DNA of 64,000 nucleotides from a bacterium (lineage in GTDB: Bacteria > Patescibacteriota > Andersenbacteria > UBA10190): contig JAUYKA010000017.1 in NCBI GenBank assembly GCA_030698495.1, positions 1,319 through 65,318 of the forward strand. Reading direction: 5' to 3'. Positions 29,472-30,434 of the stretch are shown one piece after another. The first letter of the stretch is position 1; each line of letters opens with the position of its first letter. The position numbers and the translations under genes are program-made. Below the pieces are notes generated by a model. The model ran no database searches. It was not told the origin of the DNA and was given only the letters and a program-made list of their open reading frames with translations.

Positions 29472-29984
29472 TTAAGCCCTCTGTCTGATCCCTCTGCTGC
29501 GTGCCGGTAGAGGCAACCTACGACGACAGGGTTTCTGTCGGCGGTCTCTCCTCTTCCTGGATCTCACCGTCGGGCCGTTTTGCTTCCGGCTGCTTCCGTT
29601 CCCGTTGGTGTCCTCTCCAAAACGACCGTTGACCTCACTCTTGTCGTGGGCATCAATCAGTCTCCGGAAAAAAATCCGCAATCCGGCAGACGGAGTTCGA
29701 CAGCCTTCTTCGACCAAGCCAATATCCATCGACAACAGCTCGGGCAAGCTCTTGGACAACACCAACCGATACGACAACGGCGAACGCGGATTTGCCTCCG
29801 TCAACCGCACCGCGCTGATCACCGTATCTCTGCCGGCGAACACCCGTCCCGTCACCGCGCAAGCCGTCTGACGCAACGTTGCCGTCACGTCTCCCGGCTT
29901 AACCCGTAGCAAACTGGCAACGCGCCTGGCAAGATTGTAGCGCCGATACCCCGGCCTCATCGTGTCCTTGGCCGCACGCAACAT
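29472..29984 (-). CDS. Hypothetical protein with Arg-rich C-terminal tail, in a GC-rich island
   Basis: SD AAGGAG 7 nt before the ATG. Local GC is about 63% versus about 50% elsewhere. No recognisable domain. Confidence 0.4.
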   Translation of the reverse strand: MLRAAKDTMRPGYRRYNLARRVASLLRVKPGDVTATLRQTACAVTGRVFAGRDTVISAVRLTEANPRSPLSYRLVLSKSLPELLSMDIGLVEEGCRTPSAGLRIFFRRLIDAHDKSEVNGRFGEDTNGNGSSRKQNGPTVRSRKRRDRRQKPCRRRLPLPARSRGIRQRA

Positions 29985-30065
29985 AAGTCTTCTCCTTACT
30001 TGGTGTGCTCGAAGCGCGAAATCAAGAGTTGCCTCTTCTCTCCTCCGGCCCCGCTACCAAATAAA

Positions 30066-30434
30066 CTACCGCGACGCTCCGGCCGCTCTGCGATGTCGCC
30101 TCCTTCTCTTCGGCGCCGGTTTGATGCGCGTGCTCGTGCCCGGCACAACGAGAACGAACAGCTTCGAATCGGCCAAACCCAGCACCTCCGCCACGGTTTG
30201 CGCCGTCGGCTCGACAGAGACATAACCGTTTGCGCACCGAGCGTGCACAATCGTATCGCCGTCATCTGTGCTTACCACCGCCGCGTCCTCAAACGGCGCG
30301 ATGTGGCAATTGCAAGCCCCGCACGCAACGGCAGCCAGAACACGGTCAACCCGCTCCTGTGCCGCTACACCCTGTAACAGCGCCGCCGGGCGAAAAAAAC
30401 TTCGCGCCGCCGGCTTTGTGTCTGTCGACAACAT
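30066..30434 (-). CDS. Hypothetical protein (122 aa) with a CGACNC motif and a basic tail, in a GC-rich island
   Basis: SD AAGGAG 6 nt before the ATG. The N-terminal 90 aa has folded-domain-like composition. Confidence 0.45.
   Translation of the reverse strand: MLSTDTKPAARSFFRPAALLQGVAAQERVDRVLAAVACGACNCHIAPFEDAAVVSTDDGDTIVHARCANGYVSVEPTAQTVAEVLGLADSKLFVLVVPGTSTRIKPAPKRRRRHRRAAGASR

Follow-up and report, generated by a model that had tools for sequence, protein, structure and literature searches.

A guanine-plus-cytosine (GC)-rich block at positions 29472-30434 of the 64,000-nucleotide stretch of DNA from an uncultured bacterium analysed here (the window) probably holds a two-gene operon that belongs to one clade of the candidate phyla radiation. 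We explain it as a vertically inherited unit encoding a zinc-finger protein (gene 1, the product of open reading frame 1, ORF1) and a basic partner (gene 2, ORF2), which possibly form a nucleic-acid-binding pair, and we put the probability of this overall explanation at about 0.6. Its structural and evolutionary part is very likely to be correct; the functional part, in which the pair is nucleic-acid-binding or regulatory and a palindrome in the promoter is the operator, we infer only tentatively, and the odds are against it. The source of the DNA is labelled Candidatus Andersenbacteria by NCBI, and its Lgt is closest to Peribacteria.

A previous interpretation of this DNA, made without database searches (the sequence-only reading), had placed two minus-strand ORFs between lgt and the MscS gene, at 30066-30434 and 29472-29984, each behind an AAGGAG Shine-Dalgarno sequence with a spacing of 6-7 nucleotides. 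The ORFs are present as given, the Shine-Dalgarno sequences lie at 30446-30441 (spacer of 6 nucleotides) and 29997-29992 (spacer of 7 nucleotides), and domain matches confirm the Lgt gene on one side of the block and the MscS channel gene on the other. The CGACNC motif pointed out in the first protein and the Arg-rich tails of both (KRRRRHRR and RSRKRRDRRQK...) are likewise found in the translations.

Gene 1, a putative zinc-finger protein, and its basic partner

The two genes and their ribosome-binding sequences are the following:

30066..30434, minus strand: gene 1, 122 aa; domain at residues 10-90 with C38-x2-C41 ... H64-x2-C67; Arg-rich tail at residues 92-122, predicted to be disordered
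30441..30446, minus strand: Shine-Dalgarno sequence AAGGAG of gene 1, 6 nucleotides before the ATG
29472..29984, minus strand: gene 2, 170 aa, 18.8% Arg, net charge +25; residues 111-170 form a low-complexity basic tail
29992..29997, minus strand: Shine-Dalgarno sequence AAGGAG of gene 2, 7 nucleotides before the ATG

Neither protein could be assigned to a family from its sequence alone, and this held in our searches, which gave no match for either ORF in Pfam, NCBIfam, PHROGs, PADLOC or the PDB sequences. In word-indexed searches of 5.8 billion proteins each of the two matched itself alone, under the name of a hypothetical protein from a Candidatus Andersenbacteria metagenome-assembled genome. 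An exhaustive HMMER scan of 1.84 billion representative proteins identified homologues of ORF1, namely P0003 (110 aa, E 1.5e-6), P0004 (90 aa) and P0005 (103 aa), with E-values from 1.5e-6 to 1.6e-4. Two other candidates, P0006 and P0007, were rejected as ankyrin-repeat false positives whose scores had been summed over the repeats. The family alignment added no members when used as a profile, scans of metagenome and viral contigs with it yielded no confirmed relatives, and 160 loci anchored on Lgt or MscS, translated in six frames and searched with hidden Markov models, contained no additional members. Among about 15 billion predicted proteins the family has four clear members and a fifth that is diverged. 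The diverged member is a protein encoded at locus L095, in which C/C/C(H)/C align with C38/C41/H64/C67 of ORF1.

Nine residues are invariant in the four clear members: C38, C41, I45, A46, P47, A51, H64, C67 and N69 (C-x2-C-x3-IAP ... H-x2-C-x-N). At 8 of these 9 positions the synonymous codons differ, and identity at third codon positions (0.21-0.44) is at the level of chance, which indicates that selection has acted on the protein and not on the RNA. As the sequence-only reading had warned, the high GC content produces long ORFs in other frames too; a codon frame model trained on the host nevertheless ranks the annotated frame of ORF1 as the best of six, and the same is true of ORF2. An AAGGAG sequence is also found upstream of the gene 1 homologues at loci L085, L088 and L084. 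Gene 1 encodes a real protein with about 80 folded residues, representing a previously undescribed and very rare family.

The single-sequence AlphaFold2 model of ORF1 had a predicted local distance difference test score (pLDDT) of only 48, while the model built with the four-sequence alignment reached pLDDT values of 80-90 (means of 10-residue blocks) over residues 10-90. From its N-terminus the model shows two helices, the CxxC knuckle, a beta-hairpin, a short helix with H64/C67, a strand and another helix, and the predicted core consists of C38-x2-C41, a loop, strands 51-56 and 59-64, and helix 65-68. The tail (residues 92-122) shows no conservation across the family. In treble clefs the zinc knuckle is succeeded by a loop, then a beta-hairpin, then an alpha-helix, going from the N- to the C-terminus (PMC4999995), and the model of gene 1 exhibits the same order in its core, with four conserved ligands, two per half-site. 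We therefore regard the core of gene 1 as having a predicted treble-clef zinc-finger topology, with a putative zinc site suggested by the conserved residues; the family is new and extremely rare, its fold class already known. The top Foldseek matches, all of them weak, are treble-clef structures as well (LIM, PARP-1 zinc finger, RING, PHD and HNH), although gene 1 has no significant sequence or structure match to any solved treble clef, and its domain is larger (~80 residues) and includes two additional helices at the N-terminus and a strand-helix extension at the C-terminus, which are kept within the family. With the PARP-type CCHC finger, the DNA-nick-binding module of PARP-1, gene 1 shares the C-C-H-C set of ligands; the PARP-1 matches found by Foldseek (4av1 and 3od8) cover 38-41 aligned residues at a root-mean-square deviation of 3.6-3.9 Å and, with E-values of 1-3, are not significant. 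The spacer between the half-sites is roughly 28-30 residues in PARP fingers and 22 residues in gene 1, which has no PARP Pfam match.

For ORF2 no homologue was found in the word-indexed search of the 5.8 billion proteins. The ORF occupies exactly the gap between its own Shine-Dalgarno sequence and a predicted terminator, and residues 1-110 carry a codon signal of 0.16, compared with a host mean of 0.20, while the tail (residues 111-170) carries none. In all the other lineages for which there is sequence (L088, L095, L084 and L085), the next gene after the ORF1 homologue is a small second ORF that has a Shine-Dalgarno sequence in front of it. At L088 it encodes 128 aa with a net charge of +23, the only strongly basic product among the other lineages; at L095 it encodes 60 aa (net charge +3) behind a weaker, GGAG-type Shine-Dalgarno sequence; at L084 it is partial, starts MPSNVSRKSKRRRE and is near neutral; and at L085 it is cut off after 13 bases by the end of the contig. 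No homology is detectable among the second genes of the different lineages. Judged from these sequence features, gene 2 encodes what appears to be a real, extremely basic and fast-evolving protein.

Conserved position and base composition

The arrangement MscS - ORF1 homologue - small second ORF - lgt - helicase is common to the relatives. It was recognised in the contigs encoding the homologues and in a metagenome scan for MscS, which supplied the informative loci; a search for synteny in GTDB by means of Lgt gave Peribacteria as the best relatives, with at most 48% identity and without the MscS or helicase neighbourhood. On the P0004 contig (L085) a gene for an MscS 50% identical to that of the window lies directly upstream of the homologue. 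On the P0005 contig (L088) the downstream genes follow the order of the window, with lgt (47% identical), a UvrD/PD-(D/E)XK helicase (47%), Thioredoxin_4, a cupredoxin and RNase J. Locus L095, which is part of a 474-kb contig, has MscS, a protein of 124-134 aa with CGFC ... VCHRCA, lgt and the helicase; this protein aligns with the family over both half-sites (hhalign E 1.2e-4) and contains a 17-residue insertion. The ORF1 homologues are 34-37% identical to one another and the flanking proteins 45-53%, so that gene 1 is diverging only somewhat faster than its neighbours.

Around the block there is no tRNA, integrase or transposase and no meaningful flanking repeat, only short repeats at chance level; the whole window has no tRNA or transfer-messenger RNA gene, and no relatives were found in IMG/VR or in phage and plasmid collections. 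Of the two origins that the sequence-only reading had proposed, the horizontally acquired module or mobile or viral remnant therefore loses its footing, with the same slot occupied at L085, L088 and L095, no signs of mobility and a GC content that follows from composition (see below); the lineage-specific system gains support from the gene pair standing at the same place in the relatives. The block appears, from these comparisons of sequence, to have been inherited vertically between MscS and lgt and not recently imported.

That the block is GC-rich and compositionally distinct was also borne out, with 60.0% GC against 49.4% for the whole window, the top value among all 963-nucleotide windows of the stretch and 3.4 standard deviations above their mean. 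The figure of 62-65% given previously is slightly high, since the best 300-nucleotide windows reach 61-62%; by gene, the values are about 63.1-63.6% for ORF1 and about 59.3-59.8% for ORF2. ORF1 contains 18% Ala and 11% Arg, and ORF2 ~19% Arg. From its own amino acids and the codon usage of the host, ORF1 would be expected to have 60.3% GC (observed: 63.6%) and ORF2 57.9% (observed: 59.8%). As these expectations already come close to the observed values, about 75-80% of the GC excess is attributable to protein composition, and the GC richness is mainly a consequence of Ala/Arg/Gly/Pro-rich proteins. What is left after amino acid composition is a modest extra bias in the GC content of third codon positions (GC3); the GC3 residual of the block, +0.11, falls in the top 1.4-3.2% among host blocks of equal size, which is unusual but not decisive. 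In the relatives the pair matches its background in GC content or exceeds it modestly, with 50 vs 50% at L085, 44 vs 40% at L095 and, for the ORFs of L088, 63 vs 56%. Nearly all genes of the window lie on the minus strand, and the coding strand has a strong preference for G over C; over the 10 kb for which it was profiled (25000-34899), the plus strand has a GC skew ranging from about -0.1 to -0.44.

The slot between MscS and lgt is also occupied at L089 and L108, by other small ORFs, and is never empty. At L089 (1510-2188) it keeps the promoter palindrome and the TTGACA promoter described below, a strong Shine-Dalgarno sequence and a terminator, and encodes an unrelated acidic protein of 113 aa; at L108 (856-1357) it keeps the TTGACA promoter, a strong Shine-Dalgarno sequence and a terminator, and encodes an unrelated protein of 90 aa. 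The slot ORFs of these two loci show no detectable homology to the family of either gene. A different setting is found at L084 (3368-3905), where P0003 and the ORF that follows it lie on a contig with LpxC-FabZ-LpxA that is probably of diderm origin and probably not from the candidate phyla radiation. The L084 pair has 42-48% GC in a host of 55-60%, lacks the palindrome, and its P0003 is closest to P0004 (44-46% identity); these features suggest horizontal transfer in that lineage.

Three further assemblies contain the locus. Two are 100% identical; the third, from the same organism (GCA_034372665.1, L082), differs by 14 single-nucleotide polymorphisms and one indel in 12.9 kb, all of them at 21147-25490, where they cluster near the 3' end of the helicase gene and the thioredoxin gene; the block and its immediate flanks are free of differences. 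The wider surroundings include genes of metal homeostasis. Upstream are an ArsR/HTH_5+YHS regulator (36742-37248), DUF1573, DUF5676 and a P-type ATPase with an HMBD domain (31764-34079), and downstream (23689-25206) are a Thioredoxin_4/DsbA-like gene (24436-25206) and a cupredoxin.

Putative promoter, palindrome, leader and predicted terminator

The non-coding elements assigned to the pair are:

30594..30611, no strand: perfect palindrome of 18 bp, TGTCAATGATTGTTGACA, immediately behind the MscS stop codon; includes the -35 box; candidate operator
30572..30599, minus strand: putative sigma-70-type promoter, with TTGACA at 30599-30594, 16 nucleotides, and TAAAGT at 30577-30572
30435..30565, minus strand: 5' leader of about 130-135 nucleotides, with the motif TTGGTACTTTTCA at 30534-30546
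29410..29444, minus strand: predicted intrinsic terminator, GCGGGAG-GGGU...ACCU-CUCCCGC followed by U6; 11-bp hairpin, -22.9 kcal/mol, z = -2.0

The palindrome has a single perfect match in the window, and its right arm is the consensus -35 box of the putative promoter, whose two hexamers agree with the consensus at 10 of 12 positions. Across the clade the pattern reads TTTGTCAR-N6-TTGACAAA; its core, TGTCAR-N6-TTGACA, occurs at the equivalent place at L085-L087, L088, L089 and L095 and is absent from the rest of the window and of the 168 loci fetched. L085, L088, L095 and L089 likewise have a perfect TTGACA, followed 16-18 nucleotides downstream by a -10-like hexamer. A copy of the palindrome with one mismatch, TGTCATGTCAAGTAGACA, is situated at 25275-25292, in the intergenic region that precedes the Thioredoxin_4 gene. 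The same regulator may have a second site here, or the match may be due to chance, the expected number of matches with at most one mismatch being 0.63.

The leader motif TTGGTACTTTTCA is identical at 13 of 13 positions at L095 (5117-5129), where the flanking proteins of the two lineages share about 45% identity, and reads TTGGTTCTTTT at L085 (1135-1145). The leader folds no better than its shuffled versions (z = -0.05; the z-scores of the leaders examined lie between about 0 and -1.6). We considered and rejected the idea that the motif sequesters the Shine-Dalgarno sequence in a "fourU-like" manner: such pairing is predicted in 5 of 6 leaders, and controls with shuffled upstream sequence pair about as often.

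The terminator was missed by a consensus terminator scan because the loop limit of the scan is 8 nucleotides. Terminators composed of a hairpin and a U-run precede lgt also at L088 (z = -4.4), L089 and L108. In the window the U-run ends at the first possible ATG of lgt (29409), the Lgt start according to NCBI being 29385, which leaves no space for an lgt promoter, so that lgt and the helicase gene seem to rely either on read-through or on a promoter within ORF2. Among the long ORFs of the window, 28 of 49 lack any Shine-Dalgarno-like sequence, and translation initiation here would thus appear to be mostly Shine-Dalgarno-independent; both genes of the block have AAGGAG.

Possible function and competing explanations

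In the explanation that we prefer, the products of genes 1 and 2 would form a functional pair that binds nucleic acid or has a regulatory role, and the palindrome overlapping the -35 box would be the site by which one of the two proteins represses its own promoter, autorepression being the simplest form of such control. The pair recalls the small basic nucleoid-associated or ribosomal-type proteins, in that gene 2 (net charge +25) and the tail of gene 1 are likewise basic and of low complexity, and the block likewise has strong expression signals (a consensus -35 box and consensus Shine-Dalgarno sequences). The two proteins show no homology to any such family, and gene 2 would not be a core ribosomal or nucleoid component because it differs far too much in sequence from one related lineage to another. 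Several observations weigh against our explanation. L089 keeps the palindrome together with an unrelated small ORF, which weakens the case for the zinc-finger protein as the factor that binds the operator; Foldseek gave E-values of 0.8 and 0.3 at best, so that no fold match is significant; the alignment behind the ORF1 model is shallow, because the family comprises only 4-5 members; the pair is conserved by position and composition only, because the second genes have no detectable homology; and GC3 remains a little above what is usual for the host.

The findings at L089 and L108 feed a broader idea, to which we give an outside chance, that the MscS-lgt slot is a conserved expression cassette with rapidly changing small-protein cargo, i.e. 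a hypervariable regulatory or host-interaction locus. The fixed parts would be the palindromic consensus promoter, the leader with its 13-nucleotide motif, the strong Shine-Dalgarno sites and the terminator, and the cargo would consist of unrelated small proteins in two lineages and of the zinc finger with its basic partner in four others. A metal-handling module is unlikely. Here gene 1 would be a TRASH-like (YHS/zf-FCS/L24e clan) metal sensor or chaperone tied to the nearby copper and heavy-metal genes, and the HMBD P-type ATPase, the ArsR-YHS regulator, the cupredoxin and the thioredoxin-like gene make a suggestive neighbourhood, even though the ATPase cluster does not adjoin the pair at L088. 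The TRASH clan (Pfam CL0175) unites the treble-clef YHS, zf-FCS, archaeal TRASH, ribosomal L24e and YacG domains (PMC4047054, PMC4999995), with the signature CX2CX14-30FCSX2C for zf-FCS (PMC4047054). The spacing C-x2-C-x3-I-x-P ... G-x4-H-x2-C of gene 1 is like that of the clan's motifs, its start (C-x2-C-x3-[IL]-x-P) and its 22-residue spacer to the second half-site fit the clan pattern, and gene 1 resembles the YHS domain of the ArsR-type regulator of the window; this resemblance was judged by eye, and the second half-site is H-x2-C-x-N in place of the (F)C-S-x2-C or C-x3-C of the clan. The TRASH-clan Pfam models match none of the four family members even at E <= 10. Quite unlikely is a toxin-antitoxin or other conflict or defence module in a variable slot, which would account for two small adjacent genes with a palindrome over their promoter, for the very fast evolution of the second gene and for the unrelated small ORFs that fill the slot at L089 and L108. 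No match to PADLOC, Pfam or NCBIfam was found for either protein or for the homologues, nor was a recognisable toxin fold, and the chromosomal position has been stable over a deep divergence.

Insertion of an imported island, or of what remains of a mobile or viral element, between MscS and lgt is very unlikely. It would agree with the block being the highest-GC 1-kb stretch of the window, with its GC3 residual and with strong Shine-Dalgarno sequences on both genes in a genome mostly without them; the patchy distribution of the family and the L084 pair, more AT-rich than its host, make transfer somewhere probable. For the block itself, synteny largely refutes the idea, since the position is kept in relatives with flanking proteins 45-53% identical and the promoter palindrome is kept across them, and in addition all neighbours are housekeeping genes, mobility genes and mobile relatives are missing as described above, most of the GC excess comes from amino acid composition and the codon frame signal is host-like. 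It is still harder to credit that high GC has generated spurious ORFs and that the block is non-functional DNA or encodes a structured non-coding RNA, an explanation that we consider exceedingly unlikely. High GC does yield long ORFs in several frames, ORF2 has no homologue and its tail no coding signal, but conservation in the ORF1 family is confined to the protein sequence, the prediction of its fold is a confident one and both annotated frames rank first of six. As to a non-coding RNA, the Rfam 15 covariance models gave no match at the gathering threshold in the whole window, and at E <= 10 in 29300-30700 they gave noise only (13 bits, compared with thresholds of 50-60), in keeping with the unremarkable folding of the leader.

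With a vertically inherited zinc-finger gene and its basic partner as the favoured explanation, the locus corrects a plausible misreading: a block with orphan ORFs and a GC content 10 points above its surroundings seems foreign, yet its deviation is mostly amino acid composition in a vertical locus. Lineage-specific small proteins are common in genomes of the candidate phyla radiation, and the biological importance of this pair is probably local to one clade. Two "hypothetical proteins" have nevertheless been recovered as real genes, and a new, very rare family of small putative zinc-finger proteins has been defined. To our knowledge, almost no regulation has been characterised in bacteria of the candidate phyla radiation, and the promoter palindrome and the leader motif are conserved cis-elements that offer concrete experimental handles.

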